From Treponemataceae bacterium (GTDB taxonomy: Bacteria > Spirochaetota > Spirochaetia > Treponematales > Rectinemataceae): DNA of 64,000 nucleotides. Shown here one piece after another: positions 1-14,992 of the stretch. The notes under the pieces were generated by a model, which saw nothing but the letters and a program-made list of their open reading frames with translations, searched no databases and was not told the DNA's origin. The DNA lies in NCBI GenBank assembly GCA_963677895.2, contig CAXXGJ010000006.1, positions 256,001-320,000 of the forward strand. Direction: 5' to 3'. The translations under genes were made by a program, and so were the position numbers. Position 1 is the first letter of the stretch; every line of letters begins with the position of its first letter.

Positions 1-393
1 GCAGAGATAGACCCTACCATACTTTCGCAATGTGGGACGATTGTTGCCATGCGGTTAGCGAATTCAACTGATCGATCACACATTACTAGCACTGTAAGCG
101 ATAACCTTGAAGGTCTTTTTAGTATGCTACCTACTTTGCGTACGGGGGAAGCAATCATTGTTGGAGAAGCAGTACATCTGCCATTGCGAGTGCTTATAGA
201 CGCTCCTAGTAAAAGCCATCGGCCAGACAGCCACGATCCGATAATTTATGACCCTAAAGCCAGGAAAGGATGGAATAAATCCATTGAATCTGAAGACTAC
301 GCAACATTGCTTGAGAATTGGCGAAGCGAAAAAACTCATCTTAAAATTGATCAGGAGGTGAATAATGAATCTAATTCCGGTCAGCTCTTCTAA
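1..393 (+). CDS. C-terminal part of a HerA/FtsK-like (DUF87-type) ATPase, 5'-truncated by the window edge
   Basis: Frame is open from base 1: AEIDPTILSQCGTIVAMRLANSTDR...LPTLRTGEAIIVGEAV, the typical HerA segment after the QRP motif. Confidence 0.8.
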   Translation, partial: AEIDPTILSQCGTIVAMRLANSTDRSHITSTVSDNLEGLFSMLPTLRTGEAIIVGEAVHLPLRVLIDAPSKSHRPDSHDPIIYDPKARKGWNKSIESEDYATLLENWRSEKTHLKIDQEVNNESNSGQLF

Positions 394-574
394 CATTGCT
401 GCTATTGGCTATGAAGAAGGATCAATGACTTTAACAGTTCAATTTCTTAGCGGAACCCTCTATCAGTATTTTGACGTTCCGTCACAGGTTCATCAAGAAT
501 TAATGGTTGCAGGATCTGTTGGTACCTATTTTAGCCAGAATATTAGGAACAACTATCGATATACTAAACTCTAG
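365..574 (+). CDS. KTSC domain protein
   Basis: 69 aa: VSSSNIAAIGYE..LTVQF..G.LYQYFDVP...L..A.SVGTYF...IR..Y. Overlaps the HerA stop; GGAGG RBS upstream. Confidence 0.9.
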   Translation: MNLIPVSSSNIAAIGYEEGSMTLTVQFLSGTLYQYFDVPSQVHQELMVAGSVGTYFSQNIRNNYRYTKL

Positions 575-662
575 TAAGCTAATTTTAGATGTTCACTAAG
601 GTCTAGCAAGGTGTATAGTAAACAAAAACAGAAAATGTAATGCTGAGCGAACAGAGGCATAT

Positions 663-1994
663 ATGACTATTGGTATATTGATTTGCTTAGGGCTATTAGT
701 TGTTCTTGTGGCAATTTTACTCATTCTTTTTCTTCGGTCAAAGCCAGCTTGTTACGATGAACGATTCGCTCAAATAGAGAGCGGCCAAGATAAAATTGAT
801 CAAAGCGTTCGAAATGAAATCTCTCGAAACCGAGAAGAATCTGGTAAATTGCAGACTCAAAACCGAGAGGAACTCATCAAGACGCTTGAAACCTTCCGTT
901 CAGGAATCCTTACGTCTATGGGACAAATTGCAGAGATGCAAAAAGCGCAACTCCAAACTTTTCAAGAACAACTAAGTACCTTAACGACAGGGAATGAGCA
1001 GCGTCTTGATAAGCTGAGAGAAACTGTTGACGAAAAACTTCGCCAAGTTCAGGCAGATAGTGCGGAGAAACTAGAAAAGATACGGGCTACTGTAGATGAG
1101 AAGCTTCACCAAACACTTGAAACACGCCTTGGGGAGTCTTTTAAGCTTGTTAGTGAACGACTTGAACTGGTACAAAAAGGTTTAGGAGAAATGCAGGGGT
1201 TGGCTACAGGAGTTGGAGATCTTAAGCGTGTCCTTACTAATGTTAAGACTCGAGGAACTTGGGGAGAAGTCGCGCTTAAATCAATTATCGATGATATCCT
1301 TACGCCTGCCCAGTATGAAGAAAATGCAATAACAAAAAAGGGTAGTCAGGAAAGAGTTGAGATAGCAATCAAGCTGCCCGGACGGGGAGAAGATGGAATT
1401 GAGAAAGTTCTTTTGCCGATTGACGCAAAGTTTCCTAAGGAAGATTACGAACGGCTGCTTACTGCTCAAGAAGCCGGCGATCTGGTTGGAAGCGATGAAG
1501 CATTAAAAGCCCTTGCTGCAAGGCTTAAGGGCTGTGCAAAAGATATCAGAGATAAGTATCTTAATCCTCCTGCAACCACAGACTTTGCAATTATGTTCCT
1601 GCCTTCTGAAAGTCTTTATGCTGAAAGTCTACGACGTCCAGGTTTGGTTGAATCGCTCCAGAAAGAATTTCGTATTATCGTAACAGGCCCAACAACCCTT
1701 GCCGCAATTGTGAATAGTCTCCAAATGGGTTTCAGAACTCTAGCTATTGAAAAACGCTCCAGCGAAGTCTGGCAAATTCTTGGGGCTGTAAAGACTGAAT
1801 TTGTTAAGTTTGGTGAAATTCTGGAGAAGACAAAGAAAAAGATACAAGAAGCAGGAGATACTATCGAGACAGCTTCAACTAAATCGAGAAAAATACAATC
1901 AAAGCTAAGAAGTGTAGAAGCTATGCCAGATATACCGATTGCCGGGCTTTTACCGACTGAAGCAAGCGATTTTCAAGATGATGCACAAGCCTAA
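663..1994 (+). CDS. rmuC: DNA recombination protein RmuC family
   Basis: N-terminal TM helix, long coiled coil, then NVKTRGTWGE, LPIDAKFP, TTDFAIMFLPSE and SLQMGFRTLAIEKRSSEVW motifs. Confidence 0.92.
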   Translation: MTIGILICLGLLVVLVAILLILFLRSKPACYDERFAQIESGQDKIDQSVRNEISRNREESGKLQTQNREELIKTLETFRSGILTSMGQIAEMQKAQLQTFQEQLSTLTTGNEQRLDKLRETVDEKLRQVQADSAEKLEKIRATVDEKLHQTLETRLGESFKLVSERLELVQKGLGEMQGLATGVGDLKRVLTNVKTRGTWGEVALKSIIDDILTPAQYEENAITKKGSQERVEIAIKLPGRGEDGIEKVLLPIDAKFPKEDYERLLTAQEAGDLVGSDEALKALAARLKGCAKDIRDKYLNPPATTDFAIMFLPSESLYAESLRRPGLVESLQKEFRIIVTGPTTLAAIVNSLQMGFRTLAIEKRSSEVWQILGAVKTEFVKFGEILEKTKKKIQEAGDTIETASTKSRKIQSKLRSVEAMPDIPIAGLLPTEASDFQDDAQA

Positions 1995-2042
1995 GGTAAT
2001 GCTATTATTCATAGAAGATTCTTGTTGATGGATTGAATATTT

Positions 2043-2065
2043 CCCGATAATCTGGTATTATCGGG
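2043..2065. promoter_or_regulatory. Inverted repeat CCCGATAAT-CTGGT-ATTATCGGG; candidate recombinase core/binding site
   Basis: Perfect 9-bp arms ending 3 bp before the recombinase ATG; ATAA-N7-TTAT core resembles Xer/dif-type sites. Confidence 0.6.
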
Positions 2066-2068
2066 TAT

Positions 2069-3028
2069 ATGGAATCTGACCAGATTTCCCCTAGCAAAGA
2101 GCCCTCCTTCGACGTCGAGAGGGTCGTCCAGAAACTCCTCAGAGAGGCTCCCTCTCTCAAGGACCTCTCTCCTGATCAGCTCGACACCATCGCCAAGGCG
2201 GTCGTCCTCGAAGACCTGAAGGATGACCTCAAACATCGCCGAGACTTGGCCAGGGTCGATCTGACCAAACTCCAGGAAACCTTCCTTACACGGCAGAAGA
2301 GCGCCCATACAAAACGCGCATACGAAAGCGCACTTACCCTCCTTACGACCTGGGCACAGCGTGCCGGAGTCCATATTCTTGAGATGAAACCTCGTCATGC
2401 CGATGCCTTCATTGCGTCACTCGAAGGCTCTGCGTCCTCGATCCGGCTCAAGGTAGCGGTCGCCTCTTCGTTCTTTGCCTTCCTTACGAGGGAGACCGAG
2501 AATCGGGTCACGAATCCCTTCAGAGGAACGCGCGCCCGGCCAAAACGACAAACCTCCGCCCCGCTCGTCCCGACCGGCGAAGATGTGAAAAGCCTCCTTA
2601 CGGCTTCAGAAGGGAGCCTGCATGCCGCAATCCTCTGCATGGTCGAGCATGGTTTCAGAATTGGCGCACTTCCTACGCTCGAGATCTGGGGGGCGAGGTA
2701 TAAAGCGTACTCAAAAGGGAAGCAACTTGCAGGTGAACTCTCGAGCGACACCATAGAAGCTATAAAGACGGCCGGGCTCGATCCTCGTCATCCTTGGGCG
2801 GAGACGAATCCTGAAGCGATTCGGGATGCATTCCGGTACCTCGCTCGGACGCTGCACAAGAAGGGGCTCACCAAGGCTCCCTACTCGGTCCATGACCTCC
2901 GGCACTATTACGCGATCAAGCAGTACCAGCAGGATCATGATATCTATCGGCTCAAAGAGCTTCTTGGCCACAGCTCAATCCAGGTTACAGAAGTGTACTT
3001 ATTTGGATTACACAGCTATTTTATATAG
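2069..3028 (+). CDS. Tyrosine recombinase/integrase (Xer-like)
   Basis: Catalytic residues present: GFRIG (R), SKGK (K), HDLRH (HxxR), LLGHSS (H), TEVY (Y). Visibly more GC-rich than its neighbours. Confidence 0.92.
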   Translation: MESDQISPSKEPSFDVERVVQKLLREAPSLKDLSPDQLDTIAKAVVLEDLKDDLKHRRDLARVDLTKLQETFLTRQKSAHTKRAYESALTLLTTWAQRAGVHILEMKPRHADAFIASLEGSASSIRLKVAVASSFFAFLTRETENRVTNPFRGTRARPKRQTSAPLVPTGEDVKSLLTASEGSLHAAILCMVEHGFRIGALPTLEIWGARYKAYSKGKQLAGELSSDTIEAIKTAGLDPRHPWAETNPEAIRDAFRYLARTLHKKGLTKAPYSVHDLRHYYAIKQYQQDHDIYRLKELLGHSSIQVTEVYLFGLHSYFI

Positions 3029-3295
3029 AACTATTAGCATATAATAGATTATCTAAAAATAGAACGTATCCCTATCTCTAAGGAGACATCAACCCAGGAA
3101 TAGCGAGATGAATCTCATCATCTCTTAACCTTATATTTGGTATGTACTTATTTATCCCGATGATAGTACTCTAGTGCCCTAATTATTATAACCTACTTGC
3201 GCAACTTCAGAACACTAGCAGGAATGACGATAATAGATAATTAACGTGACCTAGAAGGATATTGGGTCTATACTGGGGTATAAAGGGAGGAATAC

Positions 3296-4210
3296 ATGTC
3301 ATCGCGCGCAATTGCAGGGGAGTATAACACTAACCAAGTAATTGCTATGACTTGGCTGTTTTCTTCTAAAGTAATAAAGGAATTGGCCCAAAAGGGGGAA
3401 TCCTCGACTTTTAGTCGACTTATAAAAGCAGCAGATCTTTGGCCAAGGCTTCCTAATTGCGAGAAGCTGAGAATTCGTGATGCCTATGATATCGTCTATA
3501 ATATCCTTAAAAATGGCGACAATCGAAGTGCATACATTTACAAAAATGTTCTCACTCGTAAGCGCTTTCTTGGAATTCACAGCCTTAAAACAGCATCATT
3601 ACTTACGGAATTTCGGGTGGGAAATTCAAAGGCTGATGTAGTAATCTTAAATGGTACCTCCACTGCTTATGAGATTAAATCTGAACGAGATACTTTCCTT
3701 CGGCTTGGTAGTCAAATTAGTTCTTACCTCAATGTCTTTGACAATGTCTATGTTATCTCAAGCGAAGATAACTGCGAGCGACTTATGTCTCTTCTTCCCC
3801 CTCAAGTTGGAATTATGGCATTAAATAAAAGACAGTGCATAAGTACTATCCGTGACGCTCTCTCAAATAAACGCAATATCTCGCCAAGTATTTTTTTTGA
3901 TTCCCTCACCAGAAAAGAAGCTGAAGAAGTATTGAAACTATATAGCATTACCATCCCCAAAGTCCCAAATACCAAGATTCGAAACGAACTCAAATCCCTA
4001 TTCATTGAACTCGGAGCTTCCCGTGTGCACGATGGTGCAGTAACTGTATTAAAGAAGAGCCGGAGCCTTAGCCCTCTGAGTGATTTTCTTTTCCTTCTTC
4101 CTGATTCATTGAAAGCAGCAGGCTTAAGCATATCAATGCCCCTTACCGCCAGAGAGCAGTTAATCGACACGCTTGACCTAAGCCTTAATACAGCATACAG
4201 ATGGAGTTAA
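3296..4210 (+). CDS. sce7726-family protein with PD-(D/E)XK-like motif
   Basis: EFRVGNSKADVVILNGTSTAYEIKSERD (E..D..ExK); directly upstream of an sce7725-like gene. Confidence 0.8.
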   Translation: MSSRAIAGEYNTNQVIAMTWLFSSKVIKELAQKGESSTFSRLIKAADLWPRLPNCEKLRIRDAYDIVYNILKNGDNRSAYIYKNVLTRKRFLGIHSLKTASLLTEFRVGNSKADVVILNGTSTAYEIKSERDTFLRLGSQISSYLNVFDNVYVISSEDNCERLMSLLPPQVGIMALNKRQCISTIRDALSNKRNISPSIFFDSLTRKEAEEVLKLYSITIPKVPNTKIRNELKSLFIELGASRVHDGAVTVLKKSRSLSPLSDFLFLLPDSLKAAGLSISMPLTAREQLIDTLDLSLNTAYRWS

Positions 4211-4236
4211 CAAAGAATTAAATAAAAGAGGTTAAA

Positions 4237-5175
4237 ATGTATTACCCATATTTTCGAGGTAAACAATACGAGCTTGTGGCGATACGGGAGAATGCTCAAC
4301 TTATTGCAAATTCAAGCTTTATTCCGATTATTGAACCTGTAAAAGAAGCTTTCGGCCCTCTAGAACGTGCCTTGATGGAGCTCCACCAAAATAATGGGAG
4401 TGCCATCCTGATCATGAATCCACGACATGGGCAACTTGTTGAGGACCAATCAAGCTTAGAAGAATTATTAGCTCAAAAACTTCAGGCTTTTAGCACCCTA
4501 TCTATCGGGCTGATATTGTCACAAAACACAACACTTGCCGAAATCAGACGATTAATCTCGAAGTATTCATCGCATCCAATTACTCTTATTCATTATGGTT
4601 TCCCTGATGCAAAAAGCTTACTCTCCGCAACAACTGATCAACCGGCAGTAAAACAACATGTTTTTATTGAGGATAAATGTACAGATCTATATCCCCGTCA
4701 TTTTAAAAATTTAAAGAGAATTACTGTTCGCGACGGTTTTGAGCGAATGTCAAATAAAAATTACCCACCATTCGGAGCCTTCTCCGATCGCCATATCAAC
4801 TTCAACGAGAGAGGCTTTGATGGCTTTGGCGACTTTCTAATAGTTGGCGATGATTACTCAGAGACTGGTGGACCAGCATATGCGGTCGCAATACATCTCA
4901 CATATATCGACCCTGATCAAGATGATTCCATGTTTGTATTTCATTTTGTTTCTAAATCACAAGATACGCCGGCCGACCCGGCAGGAAAGTTTATAGAAGC
5001 GCTTGATAAACTATATTCAGAAGCAAAGCGTGCCAAGACTCCACTGTTACAGACAAAGGCTGTCAAGGAATTTCTCCATCTTCGAGAAATTGGACATTTC
5101 CCCGGACTTGGATATGTTAAAAAGCTTTCGATGCAACATCATCTCGAACTTATGGCTAACTTCTTCGCACGGTAG
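4237..5175 (+). CDS. sce7725-family protein
   Basis: Characteristic start MYYPYFRGKQYEL, PIIEPV, GFGDFLIVGDDYSETGGPAYAVAIHLTY, and C-terminal GLGYVKKLSMQHH. Confidence 0.85.
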   Translation: MYYPYFRGKQYELVAIRENAQLIANSSFIPIIEPVKEAFGPLERALMELHQNNGSAILIMNPRHGQLVEDQSSLEELLAQKLQAFSTLSIGLILSQNTTLAEIRRLISKYSSHPITLIHYGFPDAKSLLSATTDQPAVKQHVFIEDKCTDLYPRHFKNLKRITVRDGFERMSNKNYPPFGAFSDRHINFNERGFDGFGDFLIVGDDYSETGGPAYAVAIHLTYIDPDQDDSMFVFHFVSKSQDTPADPAGKFIEALDKLYSEAKRAKTPLLQTKAVKEFLHLREIGHFPGLGYVKKLSMQHHLELMANFFAR

Positions 5176-6209
5176 TGAGCATAATGGGTTGTTGCCCTAA
5201 CTGTTTTGATGATGACTATCTCAAAGATGAGGTTTTCCCTCGATATTCCACTAACCGTGGAGTATGTGCTTATTGCGGAGCAACTGATCAGGCTTTGATT
5301 GATCCACTTTTTTTTCGAGATAGCTTTGAAATACTACTAGGTATTTATTCACAACGCGAAGATGGTATCCGACTGATCGATCACCTTCGTCATGATTGGA
5401 ATCTGTTCCCTCAAGGGAACATTTCAGATCAAGCCACTGAAGAATTGCTTAACCGAATCTTTGACGACAACTCAATTTCAACGATGCGCTATCGACTTAA
5501 TGCTAATCCTACAACAAATTCACTCGATTCATGGCAGGACTTTAAGGAAGAGCTTTGTCACCGCAATCGATTCTTTCTGAAATCAGACCTAAACCTTGAT
5601 AGAATCAAGATTTTATTAGGGTTTCTTGAATGCAAACCATCGAGTATACCTGCACAGTTGTTTCGTGCAAGAATTCAAGAGGGAGACAGTCCGATCCCAT
5701 TAACACAGATGGGACCACCGCCACCCCGACTCGCCTCTCATGGACGCGCAAATCCTCCGGGAATCCCATATCTATATATGGCAAGTGATCCAAAAACAGC
5801 CATCTCCGAGCTTCGCCCGTACACAAGTGATATTACTACTGTCGCAGCACTTTCCCTAATTCCAGGTCTACTGTTTGTTGACCTCCGATTTCCCCGAAAG
5901 ACAGCCTCACCGTTCAAGTTTGGTGATGAAGACCAACTAATGTTATTACAGCAAGACCTTACATTTTTGGATCAGTTGGGAAATGAATTGACTCGACCTA
6001 TCAATCCTCGATCTGCCCATATAGAATACCTGCCAAGCCAGTATCTTTGCGAGTTTATAAAACACTGTGGATATGACGGGGTTATTTATCGTAGCTCTGT
6101 CGCTGCTGGTATAAACTACGCTTTATTCTATCCAGCAAATGCTTCACTTACAGAAATCACTACATATTCGGTGGATAGAGTATCTGTAGATATTTCTAAA
6201 GCTTCTTAA
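5175..6209 (+). CDS. RES-domain protein (predicted NAD+-consuming toxin) with Cys-rich N-terminal domain
   Basis: CCPNC..CAYC at the N-terminus; LFRAR, GRANPPGIPYLY, AISELRP, YLPSQY..EFIK..GYDGVIYRSS. GTG start overlaps the upstream TAG. Confidence 0.9.
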   Translation: MSIMGCCPNCFDDDYLKDEVFPRYSTNRGVCAYCGATDQALIDPLFFRDSFEILLGIYSQREDGIRLIDHLRHDWNLFPQGNISDQATEELLNRIFDDNSISTMRYRLNANPTTNSLDSWQDFKEELCHRNRFFLKSDLNLDRIKILLGFLECKPSSIPAQLFRARIQEGDSPIPLTQMGPPPPRLASHGRANPPGIPYLYMASDPKTAISELRPYTSDITTVAALSLIPGLLFVDLRFPRKTASPFKFGDEDQLMLLQQDLTFLDQLGNELTRPINPRSAHIEYLPSQYLCEFIKHCGYDGVIYRSSVAAGINYALFYPANASLTEITTYSVDRVSVDISKAS

Positions 6210-6242
6210 TTTGAGATCGGTTGAACTGGCGTAAAATCACAA

Positions 6243-6516
6243 TATCGGGCATATAGAATCCTACTAGAGTGCCCTTCGCGAAAAGCTCTCCGACGTCAAG
6301 CGGGTGGCCCAGAAGCCTTTCAGGGGAACCTTCTCTGAAGGATCTCTCTACCGATCAGATCGAGGATCTGATGCTCGGTTTACGATAAGCAACACTACTT
6401 CGCAAACAAGTAGTACGAGCCAGATAATGAATTTATATCGCATTAAAGAACTTCTAGGGCATTGCAGCATTCAAGTTACAGAAACCTATCTTCGGGGAAT
6501 TGAAAGCTACCTTTAG
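6243..6516 (+). pseudogene. Internally deleted, decayed paralog of the 2069-3028 recombinase
   Basis: 5' part (tatcgggcatatag...cgacgtcaagcgggtggcccagaagcc...aaggatctctctaccgatcagatcga) matches about 2059-2184. 3' part encodes LYRIKELLGHCSIQVTETYL versus IYRLKELLGHSSIQVTEVYL. Confidence 0.85.
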
Positions 6517-6525
6517 TATAACCTC

Positions 6526-7671
6526 TTAAAATGAGAGACTTATTTTTGCAGGCTTCATCGAAAGCAATTTCAAGTAAGGAAGAGCACCATCATACTGCTG
6601 ATCATCAGCAGGCGTGACGATCACATCAAATCCTAATTCTAGTGATGCGCCGAAAGGGGAAGTGATTGTCGACGTTGAGAAAGATTTTCGTAAATTGCTT
6701 TCTTCAATAAAGAGAACAAAGAGGCTGCTTTCTCCCCGGTTTCCCAATAACGATAGATCGACAGAATGGCACACTACTCGATCTCGGGAAAGCCATTTTA
6801 TTGGAATTACATTACTAAAATAGTATCCTTCCTGTTCTTCAAAGCTGTTAGGATTAGTTAGGAGGTCAAAATTCCTATTCACTTCTTCTTTACCATGATA
6901 TCGCTTCAGGGTTTCAGTACCCTTCAGGAATGATGCGTTTTCTTTCTCTTCTTGAGTTTTATAGTATTGTGCCTTTTCTCTGTCCGCTTGGATTTTCGCA
7001 TACTGTGCTTCAGCATCTGAAAAAGCTTTTGCTAGTTCAGTCTTACCTTGATCTTCCAAGTACATCGCGGGAGTGAATGAGTAGAGTAGCTCTGAAGAAG
7101 TCGAATAGATCAAATATGGGATGGTTGGATCTAGACCCTTGTCAACAAGCCAGGGTAAAAGCTTCACTAGCCCACTTTTTTGGGAAAATGAAATAATGAG
7201 CGCTGAATCAGTTAATTGGAATTTTTCATTGTTCGGCAATGTCTTCTCTAGTTTTTTATTAAAATCATACCCATAATTCAATAGAGTCTGAAGATAACTT
7301 TTTATCTTGTCACTATCATCTATCGAATCCACTAAAGTGACGAATAAATCCCTATCGACCTGTTCATCATTCAGTTGATAAACAGCGTTTGGATCTGCGT
7401 TTGCTTCCAATATTGGATTTATGCAGCTAGCTGCATAAAAAGCGAGCGCTACTGCAATTAACGGAGCTCCATTATCAAATTCTCCATTTACTTTTTTAGG
7501 ATTCTTTCGAAGCCATTCACGACATGATACAAAATCATTGTAAATAAAGAATTTGCGTAGATCTGCCTGCTCAGTACTAGAAAGCTTTACTCTTGCTTCT
7601 TGCGCAGAGAGACTATTCACTGCAGCCAAAGTAATAAGCAGTACTAGCCCGAATAGCTTTGTCTTGCGCAT
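6526..7671 (-). CDS. Exported protein with ankyrin-like repeats
   Basis: Likely start MRKTKLFGLVLLITLAAVNSLSAQ (signal peptide, AGAGGA RBS); ILEANADPN, LLNYGYDFN, LVDKGLDPT repeats. Confidence 0.65.
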   Translation of the reverse strand: MRKTKLFGLVLLITLAAVNSLSAQEARVKLSSTEQADLRKFFIYNDFVSCREWLRKNPKKVNGEFDNGAPLIAVALAFYAASCINPILEANADPNAVYQLNDEQVDRDLFVTLVDSIDDSDKIKSYLQTLLNYGYDFNKKLEKTLPNNEKFQLTDSALIISFSQKSGLVKLLPWLVDKGLDPTIPYLIYSTSSELLYSFTPAMYLEDQGKTELAKAFSDAEAQYAKIQADREKAQYYKTQEEKENASFLKGTETLKRYHGKEEVNRNFDLLTNPNSFEEQEGYYFSNVIPIKWLSRDRVVCHSVDLSLLGNRGESSLFVLFIEESNLRKSFSTSTITSPFGASLELGFDVIVTPADDQQYDGALPYLKLLSMKPAKISLSF

Positions 7672-7805
7672 GTTTATATCTCCTCTATCGATGCTTCCTT
7701 TGAAAAGGCGCTGATATAAAGCTCCGTCAACCAATCAGTTTTTATAAGATAGATATTTAATAACGCAGCACATTCTTCTGTGGTTGTTTCTCTAGGCGAG
7801 AAATA

Positions 7806-7860
7806 ACTCTCTATAGAGAGTCGATCAACAATAAGAATAGCCATACTCTCCAGAGAGAGT
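7806..7860. promoter_or_regulatory. Two operator-like palindromes ACTCTC-N4-GAGAGT
   Basis: ACTCTCTATAGAGAGT (7806-7821, perfect) and ACTCTCCAGAGAGAGT (7845-7860), each followed by C(G/A)ATCAA; the second ends 6 bp before the HTH ATG. Confidence 0.75.
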
Positions 7861-7866
7861 CAATCA

Positions 7867-8073
7867 ATGAATAAACAAATCCAGGAGGTCTGCGAGAAGA
7901 TACGTCTCTTACGAAATCAGAAAGGTTTGACCATTCTAGAATTGGCGGAGAGAGCAGGTATTGCGCATAGCGCTGTTTATTACATTGAAAGCAAGAAGAA
8001 GGAACCGACTCTTTCAACATTGTTCAAACTCGCGGAAGCATTAGAGATTTCGATTGTTGAATTCTTCAGATAA
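7867..8073 (+). CDS. XRE-family HTH regulator (controller/C-protein-like)
   Basis: 68 aa: IRLLRNQKGLTILELAERAGI...IESKKKEPTLSTLFKLAEALEISIVEFF. Confidence 0.9.
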   Translation: MNKQIQEVCEKIRLLRNQKGLTILELAERAGIAHSAVYYIESKKKEPTLSTLFKLAEALEISIVEFFR

Positions 8074-8385
8074 CTCTTCATTATAAACTGGTTGGAAGTT
8101 AGACTCTTTCGCCAGCAACCGTTCTCGCTTAGCTTAGCAAAAAATCTGATACTCCTTACGACCTAATACTTAGCCTAATAAAGCATTCAGGAAAGCACAT
8201 CATGGAGCTTATCTATATATGTCATGGTATTGACAGTTCTTAAAAAATTCCCATAATGTCGCCTGTTGAAAAATTACTTCCTGTAAATTACCTTACCCGA
8301 CTCCTGGCACGACAGATACCTCAATCCTGACTACAAGATAAGTGTATCTGCTGGCAAATCTTGTCTCACAAGAAAAGGAGTCAAT

Positions 8386-8898
8386 ATGTGCGACATATCT
8401 AATCCAAAGAACGAAGAAATCTGCATCGAAGCTGGTGCTGATATCAACACCAGAGATTGTGACGGAAGAACCCCTCTCCACTACGCTGCACGCAATCCTT
8501 ACAAAGAGGCGGCGGAGTCCCTTCTCTCAAACGGCGCTGATATAAACGCACGGGATAATATTGGTTGCACTCCGCTCATGATGGCAGCCGCTTTCAATTC
8601 CAACGCTGCGATAGCCGAGCTACTGCTCGAAAAGGGTGCGGATCTCTACGCGCAGGACAATCAGGGATGGAACGCGCTTGACTATGCCAGGCTGCTGAAT
8701 CGTAACCCGCTCATCCAGGACATTCTGATCGGAAGAGGGCTTTCCCATGCATTAAACCAGGAAATCTTCGACGTCTTCCCTGGCACACACTCGATTCCTT
8801 TCGAGCAGCCCTCTGATGCGGATCAAGCCGCACTAGATGCAATGATAGATTCTTTAGCAGAGGAATCCTGGGACTGGGAGGTAGAACAATGCAAATAG
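8386..8898 (+). CDS. Ankyrin repeat protein with acidic tail
   Basis: GADINTRDCDGRTPLHYAA, GADINARDNIGCTPLMMAA, GADLYAQDNQGWNALDYA; AGGAG RBS. Confidence 0.9.
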   Translation: MCDISNPKNEEICIEAGADINTRDCDGRTPLHYAARNPYKEAAESLLSNGADINARDNIGCTPLMMAAAFNSNAAIAELLLEKGADLYAQDNQGWNALDYARLLNRNPLIQDILIGRGLSHALNQEIFDVFPGTHSIPFEQPSDADQAALDAMIDSLAEESWDWEVEQCK

Positions 8899-9647
8899 AC
8901 CTTGGTTCGCCACCTTCCGATGGGAAGTGGCTGGAGGGACTCGCCGTAGAGTCCCTCCTTACGATGGAATTCCCGATACAGGCGATCCTGAAGGATTCTC
9001 TCTACTATCCTGCTTCAGGTTTCGACGGAGATCCTATAAAGCATCTACTCGGTACCTTCCTTTCTTTCATCTATGTCGATTACGCCCGATCGCATGAACT
9101 ACTCATGCTCGAGATCCAAGGGAGGGGGTTCAAAGGGTATCGGATGCTCGGTTGGAGAGCTGTAACGAAGCAAGAGCTCGTCCCACATGGCTGGACTCCT
9201 CGATATCCTACACGGAAGGATGGAGATCCTCGATCTGGATACCGGTGGGCGAAACCGCCTTTCTGTGACTGGTGTGTCTTTGAGCGATTACCGGAGATGC
9301 CCGAAGGGTACGGTCCTTACCGTTTCAGTCTGCTGTTCCTAGGCGGTGATGGCGTCGCCACGTTTCAAGCACTTTACCTGGGGAACCATGCCTTTCCCCG
9401 AGGAGTGGCGATCATCCAGGATGGATATGGCTTCGGGTTCGGTTGGACTCCATTCCGCGACAGGAACCGAATCTTCGCCAGATCCGTGATGGAGAATCCT
9501 TATGGGCAGCCAGAAGTACTCTTGAACGGTGGTTGGGGAAAAATAGGGGGTTATCAAGATCCTATATGGCCTGAATATGCAGAGGAATTGGGTTGCTTCA
9601 AGAAGACTATCGCTGGGTCATTCATAGCCTGGGGACTGTCAATGTAG
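8889..9647 (+). CDS. Hypothetical protein, possibly Rossmann/SAM-binding-like
   Basis: 252-aa ORF overlapping the ankyrin gene stop; LYYPASGFDG followed by FIYVDY. Confidence 0.6.
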   Translation: MQIDLGSPPSDGKWLEGLAVESLLTMEFPIQAILKDSLYYPASGFDGDPIKHLLGTFLSFIYVDYARSHELLMLEIQGRGFKGYRMLGWRAVTKQELVPHGWTPRYPTRKDGDPRSGYRWAKPPFCDWCVFERLPEMPEGYGPYRFSLLFLGGDGVATFQALYLGNHAFPRGVAIIQDGYGFGFGWTPFRDRNRIFARSVMENPYGQPEVLLNGGWGKIGGYQDPIWPEYAEELGCFKKTIAGSFIAWGLSM

Positions 9648-9903
9648 ACTGGCTATTATGCCTATCGCTATACGAATAAAGATGATTCCTTTTGACCTAT
9701 ATTCACAGGTATTGTAAAATGCTACTCAGATATATAATAGAAGAGTTGCGGTATCGATTAGGGGAGGTACTTGGTCGTTAACACGCAATTTTCTCTGCTA
9801 TGTGGTCTAGGAATGTTAATCTCGTTACTAATATATATTTAATAGTATATATTTATACTGACTTAAAACAAGGATTATTTGATATGGGGTCGAAAAATCT
9901 ATC

Positions 9904-11010
9904 ATGATTGGATATTTTCCAAATTACAGGAACACCAAGAAGAGCAAGTGCAATAATAAAAAAATATACGCAATTGACTTATTCTGTGGTGCAGGAGGAT
10001 TAACCAAAGGTCTTGAAACTGCAGGGATTGATGTTCGGCTAGGTATAGATATTGATCCAGAATGTGAATACCCGTATTCCCGAAACACTTCCTCCAGCTT
10101 TATGAAGGCCTCCATTGATTCAGTTAGTGGCAAAGACCTTATGCAATACTATCGGGGCAATAGCGTTCGTCTTCTCGCAGGCTGTGCACCATGCCAGACT
10201 TTTTCTTCTTATAATAAAAAAGCCGATAAAGAGGACGGACGCTGGTGGCTACTATCAGAGTTTGCTCGTTTGGTTAAAGAAATGGAGCCAGAGATCGTTA
10301 CGATGGAGAATGTTCCTGGTCTTGCTGGGCAGGACGTATTCTCATCCTTTATTGGGGTATTGCGTCGGAATAGATACCATTTTTCCTATTCTATTGTGGA
10401 TTGTGTCCTTTATGGTATTCCCCAGAAGAGAAAACGACTTGTCCTTCTAGCTTCTAAGCTAGGACGTATTTCTTTACTCTCCCCAGAACAAATCAACGCA
10501 CAATCTAAAACCGTCAGGACAGCAATTAGCCATCTCCCTGAACTTGAGGCAGGGCAGGTGGATTTGAATGATCCATTACATCAATGTTCTGTACTTTCTT
10601 CTTTAAACACCAAGAGAATAAAAGCGTCCTTAGCTGGTGGCTCATGGAAAGATTGGAATAAATCATTGATTGCTGACTGCCATCTCAAGGAATCAGGCGA
10701 ATCCTATCCAAGTGTGTATGGTCGAATGGTGTGGGATGAACCTTCGCCTACGATTACCACACAATTTTATGGATTTGGTAATGGTCGTTTTGGGCATCCT
10801 CAACAAAATCGTGCGATATCCCTTAGGGAAGGTGCAATTCTACAGACTTTTCCAGATGACTACGAATTTGTTGCACCAGGAGAGCGTATCAAAAAAACCA
10901 CTATTGGGCGACTTATTGGGAATGCGGTTCCTGTACGTCTCGGTGAGGTAATCGGAGAAACAATACTAAAACATGTAAGATCGCACGATTGCAGTAAGGA
11001 AGAAAAATGA
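9904..11010 (+). CDS. C5 DNA cytosine methyltransferase, M.HgiDII-like
   Basis: DLFCGAGG (motif I), GCAPCQTFS (IV), ENVPG (VI), PQKRKR (VIII), GNAVP (X). TRD region CHLKESGESYPSVYGRM..PTITTQ..G.GNGRFGHP resembles M.HgiDII as I recall it. Confidence 0.93.
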   Translation: MIGYFPNYRNTKKSKCNNKKIYAIDLFCGAGGLTKGLETAGIDVRLGIDIDPECEYPYSRNTSSSFMKASIDSVSGKDLMQYYRGNSVRLLAGCAPCQTFSSYNKKADKEDGRWWLLSEFARLVKEMEPEIVTMENVPGLAGQDVFSSFIGVLRRNRYHFSYSIVDCVLYGIPQKRKRLVLLASKLGRISLLSPEQINAQSKTVRTAISHLPELEAGQVDLNDPLHQCSVLSSLNTKRIKASLAGGSWKDWNKSLIADCHLKESGESYPSVYGRMVWDEPSPTITTQFYGFGNGRFGHPQQNRAISLREGAILQTFPDDYEFVAPGERIKKTTIGRLIGNAVPVRLGEVIGETILKHVRSHDCSKEEK

Positions 11011-12887
11011 AAGAGTACCTTTTAACAGTTGATGTACGTATTCTTGAACTACTCGGACCCAATCTCTATACGAATATCTACTATGTTTTAGCAGAGTTAA
11101 TCGCAAATGCTTATGACGCAGATGCGAAAAATGTCTACATCATCTCTAATAAAGATGATATCCGCGTCGAAGATGATGGACATGGGATGTCCTATGAAGC
11201 AGGAGATATAAAAAAGTACTTAAATGTTGCAGCTGTTTCGAGATCCACTGAAGATGAATCGTTAACAAAATCAGGTACACGTCGCAAAATGGGACGCAAA
11301 GGAGTAGGCAAACTAGCTGCGCTTTCCGTTTCTGAAAACGTTGATGTCTTAACTATCGCTCAAGGGGAGAAATCCGGATTCGTACTATCCCGCCACCCGG
11401 CGGCTGATAACAAACTAATAGAAATCGAAGACGATAAAATAGTGTTTGAACGAATTGCAGATCATGGCTCTGCAATAATCATGAGAAATCCCCAGTACCG
11501 ACTCCATAAGAGCATGATCAGTATTCAGCGTAATCTTCTCAAGATATTTCCTTTGATCAATTCAGATTTTCGTATACATGTCATTCGTGGTGACGAGAGT
11601 GTGACAATTGACAGTTTCGATCGGAGTATCATGGGTGACTTATGTGCCCTGATAACACTTGGCGAGAAATTTGCTCCGCTATGTGATCTTGTAGATAATA
11701 GTGTACCAAGTAGACGATCTGATTTAGTTGTGGCAAAAGAAAAAATGAATATACCAATTTCCATGAAAGCAAATGATGGTGTGCAGCATGAATACAACCT
11801 TGAAATACTAGGCTGGATCGGTACATACAAATCAACACGTGGACGAAAAGCAGAGATGACAGATTTCCCTGATAACTTTATATCATTATTTGCAAATGAT
11901 AAGCTCGGTGAGTTCAATATCTTGCCCTTTGTTGGTCAAAATAAATTAAACGAAGTCTATGTTGTTGGACAACTACACATTGATCTTTTTGAATTAACGG
12001 AATTGCCAGATATGGCATTGAGCAACCGACAGGGATACAAATCAGATGATCCGCGCTATGTAGCTATGTTGGAGTATGTGAGAAAGGATTTATTAGCCGA
12101 AATTTTACGAAAACGCGAAGTCTTCACGGATCTTGCCAATGCAGAAAGAAAGAAACAAAAAGAAGCGATGCAAAAGAATGATGAAGCCAACCTAAAAGTC
12201 GCTGTAGACACTTTTCGTAAAAATGCCAGCTCAGATGCGGCTAATACATTGGCGGGACTTGATTTGAAAGTCTCTCGTGAAGCGATTGAGTCGGTTATCT
12301 CAAAATCCATTAATGCTCATAGCCCAGACCTTGGTCTGAAGGTTAAGGTTGATTCTCAGAAAAAAAAGATCCTCATTAGCCAAACAAGTGCTGATAAGGC
12401 TCTTGCAGACATCATTTACCAGATGTTGGTATTTAATAACGTTCTGTCCGATGACATTTTATATACAAACTGTGATGACGAGGTTTGTAGGGTACCTGAA
12501 AATCGAGCCGTTTACGAATATCTCCGCGAATTTTTTGTAGAAAGTTATTCGGCTAAAAAGATCTATGTGCTTTTTGTAACAAGCCAAAACACGAAGGTCT
12601 CATGGGGGGCAATCACAGAGGTTGGAGCAGCTTGGATCACGAAAATTGATCATAAGATTTTTAACGTACCCCCCTTTCGTCCAGAGCATCCTCTAGATGT
12701 TGAAATGCAATGGCAAAACACATATCGTACTGAACCAACGAAAGGAGATCTCTGGATGACCAGGCTAAACGCAGACATTTTTTGCCAAAAATTAGAATCA
12801 GTCTGTGATGCACTGGTTTACAAGAAAAAAACACGTGTTCAAAACATGGATTATTTGGGCACACTTGTTTCTATAAGAAGTACATGA
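11007..12887 (+). CDS. GHKL (MORC/MutL-type) ATPase fused to a C-terminal TIR-like domain
   Basis: ELIANAYDA, EDDGHGM, GRKGVGK; coiled-coil linker; C-terminal KILISQTSADKALADII...VLFVTSQNTKVSWGAITEVGAAW. ATGA overlap with the MTase stop. Confidence 0.8.
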   Translation: MKEYLLTVDVRILELLGPNLYTNIYYVLAELIANAYDADAKNVYIISNKDDIRVEDDGHGMSYEAGDIKKYLNVAAVSRSTEDESLTKSGTRRKMGRKGVGKLAALSVSENVDVLTIAQGEKSGFVLSRHPAADNKLIEIEDDKIVFERIADHGSAIIMRNPQYRLHKSMISIQRNLLKIFPLINSDFRIHVIRGDESVTIDSFDRSIMGDLCALITLGEKFAPLCDLVDNSVPSRRSDLVVAKEKMNIPISMKANDGVQHEYNLEILGWIGTYKSTRGRKAEMTDFPDNFISLFANDKLGEFNILPFVGQNKLNEVYVVGQLHIDLFELTELPDMALSNRQGYKSDDPRYVAMLEYVRKDLLAEILRKREVFTDLANAERKKQKEAMQKNDEANLKVAVDTFRKNASSDAANTLAGLDLKVSREAIESVISKSINAHSPDLGLKVKVDSQKKKILISQTSADKALADIIYQMLVFNNVLSDDILYTNCDDEVCRVPENRAVYEYLREFFVESYSAKKIYVLFVTSQNTKVSWGAITEVGAAWITKIDHKIFNVPPFRPEHPLDVEMQWQNTYRTEPTKGDLWMTRLNADIFCQKLESVCDALVYKKKTRVQNMDYLGTLVSIRST

Positions 12888-13079
12888 AAAGGGGTCAATT
12901 TTTTTGTGTAGTATGTTTGAGGAGGGAGAACGAGATTTTAATTATGAGATGGAATTGTGAGATAAATCGTAACTAATCCTTACAATAGGCAACCATGCCA
13001 TACAACTAATTCGTTGACACTTATTAAAATACGCCAGATAATGTCCAAGCGTTACAACGCATGGATAAGGATTTTTCGT

Positions 13080-13122
13080 ACTCATAATCCGTTGGTCCCT
13101 GGTTCAAGTCCAGGTGGGCCCA
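13080..13122 (+). repeat. 3' half of tRNA-Ile2/Met (anticodon CAT); putative attR, not an intact tRNA
   Basis: ACTCATAATCCG-TTGGTC-CCTGGTTCAAGTCCAGG-TGGGCCCA gives anticodon loop, T-arm and acceptor 3' strand; no D-arm or 5' acceptor strand upstream. Confidence 0.88.
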
Positions 13123-14950: not shown

Positions 14951-14992
14951 ACTGATAATCCGTTGGTCCTGGATCAAGTCCAACTGGGGCGA
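14951..14992 (+). repeat. Degenerate second copy of the tRNA(CAT) att sequence
   Basis: ACTGATAATCCGTTGGTCC-TGGATCAAGTCCAACTGGGGCGA; 36/43 positions match 13080-13122 by hand alignment. Confidence 0.8.

Follow-up and report, generated by a model that had tools for sequence, protein, structure and literature searches.

A cytosine methyltransferase coupled to a GHKL ATPase with an SpbK-like TIR domain forms a conserved module related to restriction enzymes

We analysed a stretch of 64,000 nucleotides from a Treponemataceae bacterium (GCA_963677895.2, contig CAXXGJ010000006.1, positions 256,001 to 320,000; hereafter the window), and focused on two neighbouring genes: a C5 cytosine methyltransferase of 368 amino acids (aa; 9904..11010, + strand) and a 626-aa protein (11007..12887, + strand), of paraMORC4 type, in which a GHKL ATPase and a putative S5/transducer domain are followed by a coiled coil and a TIR domain. 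An original prediction, made from the sequence alone, had described two translationally coupled genes at the end of a genomic island, and both points hold: the open reading frames (ORFs) share an ATGA overlap at 11007-11010, and the pair lies at the right end of a 31-kb island of low GC content (~43% vs a background of ~58%). This island is flanked by a 46-bp tRNA(CAT) repeat, of which the left copy lies within the intact tRNA (G000:C6:237634-237679) and the attR-like copy, matching the 3' part of the tRNA (13077..13122, + strand; 97.8% over 46 bp by blastn), coincides with a GC step. The tRNA(CAT)-integrated element spans G000:C6:237606-269122 (L074 plus window positions 1-13122). Both genes were recovered with zero differences on single contigs from the runs of two studies, one of which may be the source sample itself. 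A scan for promoters and terminators stayed at chance level.

The methylase matches PF00145 (E 7e-53) and TIGR00675, its best PADLOC model is DrmMII (E 8e-94), and the full set of C5 motifs noted originally is invariant in 43 methylase homologues. Its subfamily comprises the drmMII methylases that head class 1 DISARM operons, together with the methylases found beside BbrUII/HgiDII restriction endonucleases (REases). In the second protein, residues ~1-348 (11007..12050, + strand) form a GHKL ATPase and S5-like module matching HATPase_c_3 (Pfam PF13589). Conservation was assessed in a close set of 181 distinct homologues and a distant set of 33 sequences (the window protein and 32 distant representatives). 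The ATP-binding residues E30, N34, D56, G58, G60, G96, K98, G99 and G101 are invariant in both (181/181 and 33/33), in keeping with the intact GHKL boxes of the original prediction. The AlphaFold2 (AF2) model contains an alpha/beta second domain after the GHKL domain, a candidate S5 domain in view of full-length Foldseek matches to HSP90, GyrB and ParE, and the anticipated coiled-coil linker appears as long helices across residues 349-437 (12051..12317, + strand; helices 349-416 and 424-437).

The tail, residues ~452-626 (12360..12884, + strand), is a TIR domain, predicted to destroy NAD+, with SpbK as its closest relative by hidden Markov model (HMM), sequence and fold. The PADLOC spbK HMM covers residues 449-560 only (E 1.7e-18), and the tail matches the sequence of solved SpbK (PDB 9phb) with E 6.5e-8. 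A structure model of the tail alone (pLDDT 82.8) retrieves SpbK as the top Foldseek match (E 1.2e-6), and SpbK also ranks first in VIA-align (Z 12.3, root-mean-square deviation 4.0, 142 aligned; ~20-22% identity across this structure-based alignment), with eight further TIR domains behind it. An Atlas feature search also gives TIR_2 clusters. The Pfam TIR models leave the window protein unmatched and match some relatives, below cutoff only. These results bear out the TIR-like tail of the original prediction and its lack of a nuclease motif, since homology to the nuclease family described below ends near residue 417 and the tail folds as TIR.

Glu538 (codon 12618..12620, + strand) corresponds to the SpbK catalytic Glu192 by sequence alignment and the residue list of PMC12847820 (offset 24). 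This residue, correctly placed at the NADase catalytic position by the original prediction, is invariant together with G540 and W543 in all 181 close and all 33 distant homologues. G540 and W543 align with SpbK G194 and W197, which are required for assembly and NADase activity (PMC12847820), and the SpbK E192Q substitution abolishes NAD+ loss and defence (PMC11984713). The catalytic-position residues of both the TIR and ATPase domains are under purifying selection, and of 14 pairs compared, the 7 whose dS was measurable (unsaturated) gave dN/dS values of 0.026-0.048 over the TIR domain. Recurrent 187-aa TIR-only proteins (P0298, P0306, P0307, P0308, P0313) start at the equivalent of residue ~442 and keep the Glu; they may represent either split forms or pieces of disrupted genes. 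We considered phase variation at an A8 tract where the TIR begins but dropped the idea, since just 2/68 homologues have runs of 8.

We then surveyed the surroundings of related genes, the counts referring to the best 73 loci of 314 confirmed relatives from a genome scan that spans many phyla. Homologues keep the methylase neighbour, a point that the original prediction proposed to survey: it lies within 14 kb at 64/73 loci. At 36/73 the module stands alone, with a methylase of the same subfamily inside the 6-kb flanks, and 29 of these 36 pairs are within 150 bp of each other, the methylase being upstream or downstream. Another 36/73 are embedded in class 1 DISARM gene clusters, identified through named representatives, among drmD, drmMI, drmA, drmB and drmC. 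The methylase mostly heads the operon, often with vsr, and the common layout is drmMII-vsr-drmD-drmMI-(GHKL-TIR)-drmA-drmB-drmC. This setting of about half of the homologues was missed by the first reading. DNA of the 73rd locus (L018) starts at the ATPase-TIR gene. At one GHKL-TIR DISARM locus, DrmA matches the solved DrmA structure 7s9v with 2404 bits. Whole-genome searches for the 36 DISARM-embedded loci found the methylase in 31, of which 28 lie within 14 kb on the same contig, one lies at 46 kb in an interrupted operon (G012), and two are on other contigs near their ends beside DISARM pieces (in G033, adjoining a drmC fragment at the contig end). At the 5 loci with no methylase match, the contigs end within ~8 kb upstream. 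Frameshifts affect 4/73 ATPase-TIR genes vs 0 broken methylases among those found, numbers that are few and possibly reflect assembly errors.

The pair in the window has no DISARM genes around it. None of drmA, drmB, drmC, drmD or drmMI was found in the island, DrmB has no match in the 93%-complete host genome (the query does match elsewhere), and the single vsr match of this genome is on another contig. A quick maximum-likelihood tree of 68 full-length ATPase-TIR proteins, rooted at the midpoint, shows 12 switches between the DISARM and stand-alone labels, of which at least 9 are forced; stand-alone tips keep both genes. Stand-alone pairs occupy the deep branches under this root, and the group to which the window protein belongs is supported and comprises 14 DISARM-embedded and 6 stand-alone members. 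At one locus (L038), the methylase, vsr and GHKL-TIR genes persist next to drmD and drmC-like remnants. The simplest reading is that the DISARM core was repeatedly lost while both genes were kept, a direction that we infer. Viral contigs hold 5 loci of the family and none for DrmB. Of 5426 E. coli genomes, 27 gave matches, to the methylase only; a metagenome scan with the methylase returned few close relatives, and the ATPase-TIR gene was found in 0/40 relatives of the host genome.

The drmMI-drmA junction is an insertion hotspot, where we also observed a 1060-aa reverse-transcriptase protein, an ATPase and O-methyltransferase pair, and a PifA-like gene (L194:7640-10822; L207:7590-10004; L105:12881-15022). 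Because of this hotspot, and because the methylase needs no GHKL partner, it is the stand-alone pairs that carry the linkage argument. Five loci (L077, L086, L087, L088, L192) have a second, DrmD-like SNF2 helicase (~1048 aa) and a 541-571-aa protein before drmA, the latter with no PADLOC, NCBIfam or Pfam match. At four others (L076, L091, L096, L100) an AspBHI-like methyl-directed REase adjoins GHKL-TIR in DISARM operons that also have a C5 methylase, and one contig (L035:1779-7532) carries a DrmA-DrmB fusion in one 1917-aa ORF directly after the GHKL-TIR gene. In a P2-like prophage hotspot of E. coli (L189:8257-11153), the partners of the methylase subfamily are DUF262 and HEPN-like genes, and comparable pairs are found near two of the GHKL-TIR loci (L072; L028).

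The BbrUII/HgiDII restriction enzymes proved to be a sister family with the same N-terminal GHKL-S5 module (N-module), which upholds the proposed kinship to HgiDII-type REases; HgiDII, listed as type IIP, carries a GHKL domain at its N-terminus (PMC2441816). The N-modules align in hhalign with a probability of 100% and 26% identity, up to about residue 417. The BbrUII/HgiDII model NF050001 matches the window protein over residues 4-418 only, with 214 bits vs a cutoff of 550. Both families occupy the same operon slot, and their partner methylases belong to one subfamily (54% identity to the E. coli prophage example and up to 92% between operons with the TIR and the nuclease form), whereas the window protein has a TIR domain in place of the C-terminal nuclease-motif domain. 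Among the 150 representatives listed in an N-module search, 76 are full-length, and these end either in TIR (32) or in another shared domain (44). The consensus of this alternative domain (E..R.DI..ELK..Q..Y) and a weak NucS_C match lead us to read it as PD-(D/E)XK-like, and 9 of the 12 such proteins scanned exceed the BbrUII/HgiDII cutoff.

As a control, DISARM loci were chosen by DrmB alone in two samples of ~400 genomes, yielding 6 new loci. The DNA fetched for these contains this methylase at 4, the nuclease form at 1 (G071) and the TIR form at 0; the drmMI-drmA slot otherwise holds unrelated cassettes or nothing. In G071 a BbrUII/HgiDII nuclease sits in the drmMI-drmA slot, where TIR-bearing operons hold the TIR form. 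Compared with the TIR-bearing L046, the methylase is 92% identical and the flanking DNA 88-96% identical; the G071 slot protein has 28% identity to the window protein. Near-identical operons thus carry different slot proteins, so the nuclease and TIR forms exchange like alleles, and the effector swapping that the original prediction proposed to survey is seen both here and among the 76 full-length proteins. On a Deinococcus plasmid, DISARM is followed by vsr, the methylase and the nuclease form. A contig from a viral collection (L204:4920-9553) carries, downstream of vsr and a Z1-domain gene, a tandem of the methylase, GHKL-TIR and another GHKL gene; this last gene (547 aa) is BbrUII-like and matches the N-module only.

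The pair is a real, conserved module, and one that had been predicted before. GHKL, S5 and TIR domains joined in restriction-modification (RM) operons constitute the paraMORC4 family of Iyer, Abhiman and Aravind (2008; PMC2292703), so the system is not the new one that the original prediction took it for. The window protein fits this family, membership being judged by features and not by the paper's member list. It shares intact ATP-binding motifs, a C-terminal TIR domain and RM-type neighbourhoods (cytosine methylases, Vsr, SF2 helicases). Features of paraMORC4 include Hx[ST]xD after strand 1, Sx[ND] after strand 3 and split TIR forms; the window protein reads Q-T-S-A-D, with Gln for the motif His, and S-Q-N. 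The 2008 paper predates the TIR NADases and proposed that the TIR is a nuclease or a ligand-binding (allosteric) domain, with no experiment given in the passages concerned. SpbK, from Bacillus subtilis ICEBs1, has the closest TIR and shares the catalytic Glu and the aligned Gly194 and Trp197, but it has a small N-terminal phage-portal sensor, no ATPase and no methylase partner. The characterised six-gene class 1 DISARM of Serratia has no GHKL-TIR gene and, in the passages on it, showed no autoimmunity without its methylases (10.1101/2021.12.28.474362). The literature searched, subscription journals and preprint supplements being beyond its reach, yielded no experimental work on a GHKL-TIR/methylase pair, and no such system appears in the main-text passages of the Tiamat preprint, the modularity preprint or the E. 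coli TIR survey (PMC11350192).

In its C-terminal part, the methylase variable region is shared with nuclease-linked methylases. HgiDII and BbrUII recognise GTCGAC, the motif that had been predicted for the window methylase. This proposal found no support: in a codon-shuffle test, the genes of the family itself were not depleted in GTCGAC (0.92). In the genome it ranks 14th of 64 palindromes with an observed/expected ratio of 0.85, and it occurs 4 times in the island. In codon-shuffle tests MTCGAK gave 0.59 and 0.64 (two pair sets), with 0.90 in DISARM core genes, and CTCGAG gave 0.35; many unrelated palindromes were as low, and no motif was therefore called. A 50%-identical Listeria homologue and its methylase lie between thiE and a phospho-beta-glucosidase gene (L190:4922-7917, Listeria monocytogenes), which we take to be the lmo0318-lmo0319 interval. 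A type II system described as 'SalI-like GTCGAC' has been reported at lmo0318-lmo0319, assigned by annotation tools only (PMC10059834), and the Listeria methylase and GHKL-TIR pair is probably this published RM cassette (Listeria CC2). The Serratia DrmMII, on operon similarity a likely orthologue of the window methylase, methylates MTCGAK incompletely (10.1101/2021.12.28.474362).

We favour, with a confidence just short of even, the reading that the two genes are an RM-derived module in which an SpbK-like TIR has taken the place of the nuclease, likely destroying NAD+ and thereby killing or arresting the cell when foreign unmethylated DNA is met. The methylase would mark host DNA at a short palindrome whose core is probably TCGA, and the GHKL-S5 dimer would close on unmethylated sites upon ATP binding. 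Loaded dimers might then cluster and bring TIR domains head-to-tail into a composite active site, as in SpbK filaments, and at about half of the loci the module could provide class 1 DISARM with an abortive back-up. The position of the pair in a tRNA-integrated defence island was counted for a defence role. Taken in full, as a restriction enzyme turned suicide sensor whose clamp reads unmethylated sites and assembles an SpbK-type NADase, an allele swapping with a nuclease and in some class 1 DISARM operons a kill switch, the scheme is offered tentatively.

Several observations weigh against this reading. Site recognition usually lies in the nuclease domain of PD-(D/E)XK enzymes; if this holds for BbrUII/HgiDII, the TIR form has lost its reader, and identity between the two N-modules is only 26-28% despite near-identical partner methylases. 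Co-divergence of methylase and ATPase-TIR is moderate (Mantel rho 0.39, p 0.001, 60 pairs, kin not being independent), the two share the same nearest neighbour in 16/60 pairs, and divergence is greater among the methylases (median 52%) than among the ATPase-TIR proteins (68%). Some loci have the methylase but no GHKL partner at all, which, with the slot being a hotspot, makes linkage inside DISARM weak evidence. Within the TIR domain, Gln459 replaces the paraMORC4/SpbK motif His, which is kept in 28/33 distant relatives while Gln is fixed in 174/181 close homologues, and the position of SpbK Tyr188 is Gly. Methylation in the systems described is partial, Serratia DrmMII modifying just 34-67% of called sites (10.1101/2021.12.28.474362) and Klebsiella KcmA below half; if these are orthologues of the window methylase, a trigger responding to any unmethylated site would be autoimmune. 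For every member of the family, the NADase and defence roles are predicted.

Some of these points suit a protein that reads no DNA site. The ATPase-TIR protein might instead monitor the methylase or the DISARM machinery and trigger NAD+ loss when restriction is subverted, the signal being an anti-restriction protein of the phage, a DNA mimic, or nicked or unwound DNA from Vsr or DrmAB; we consider such a guard less likely but a strong rival. It would fit a methylase linkage that is near-universal (64/73) yet just moderately co-divergent, the loss of the likely DNA-cutting domain from the TIR form, the frequent nesting in DISARM with vsr, and the partial methylation reported for DrmMII, and SpbK itself is activated by a phage protein (PMC12847820, PMC11984713). 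The descent of the N-module from site-specific REases, with one of which it swaps at the same slot, is harder to accommodate, and since the host genome has no DrmB match and its vsr is on another contig, only the methylase or the other systems of the island could be guarded.

The output may also differ from bulk NAD+ depletion. We think it improbable that the TIR domain makes a cADPR-type signal for another effector or forms a nuclease or allosteric nucleotide site, given that stand-alone loci have no conserved third gene to receive a signal and that the NADase-type Glu and assembly-helix residues are invariant, even though SpbK yields N1-cADPR besides ADPR (PMC12847820), a nuclease or ligand-binding role was proposed in PMC2292703, and the first-loop His-to-Gln change is fixed in nearly all close homologues. 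Equally doubtful is an independent anti-phage cassette whose trigger has nothing to do with methylation and which just travels with the methylase through defence hotspots. The drmMI-drmA slot does hold PifA-like, AspBHI-like, reverse-transcriptase and extra-helicase cassettes, and the methylase elsewhere pairs with DUF262/HEPN genes (E. coli prophage) or with nothing. Chance companionship is, however, at odds with the tight coupling at 29/36 stand-alone loci across many phyla and several gene orders, and all loci with ample flanking DNA have the methylase nearby, bar G012 and G033.

The remaining genes of the island comprise an integrase, an IS481-like transposase, a UvrD-PD(D/E)XK fusion, AbiLi/AbiLii, type III-like mod/res genes, SIR2-HerA, RmuC, a second tyrosine recombinase, a sce7726/sce7725/RES trio and an ankyrin gene. 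The claim that no separate REase gene is present is thus right in that no type II REase adjoins the pair, but not for the island as a whole, where the type III-like RM pair lies outside the window. A degenerate second tRNA(CAT) att copy (window 14951-14988, G000:C6:270951-270988; 87% over 39 bp) lies 1.9 kb to the right of attR and is perhaps the end of an older insertion.

In the current view, RM is a first line of defence that involves no suicide, and TIR NADases are suicidal effectors whose triggers are phage proteins, signalling nucleotides or guide-bound DNA. A methylation-gated TIR, if true, would join these two forms of defence, a self/non-self check by methylation leading to cell suicide instead of DNA cutting. 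With natural nuclease and TIR alleles beside 92%-identical methylases, a single experiment could directly address two open questions: the role of the GHKL module in HgiDII-type REases and the location of their site specificity. The module may partly explain the second methylase in some class 1 DISARM operons. GHKL-TIR genes are likely mis-annotated as ordinary type II REases, and should the suicide-sensor reading be true, some systems annotated as type II, among them the SalI-like one in Listeria CC2, would cut no DNA.

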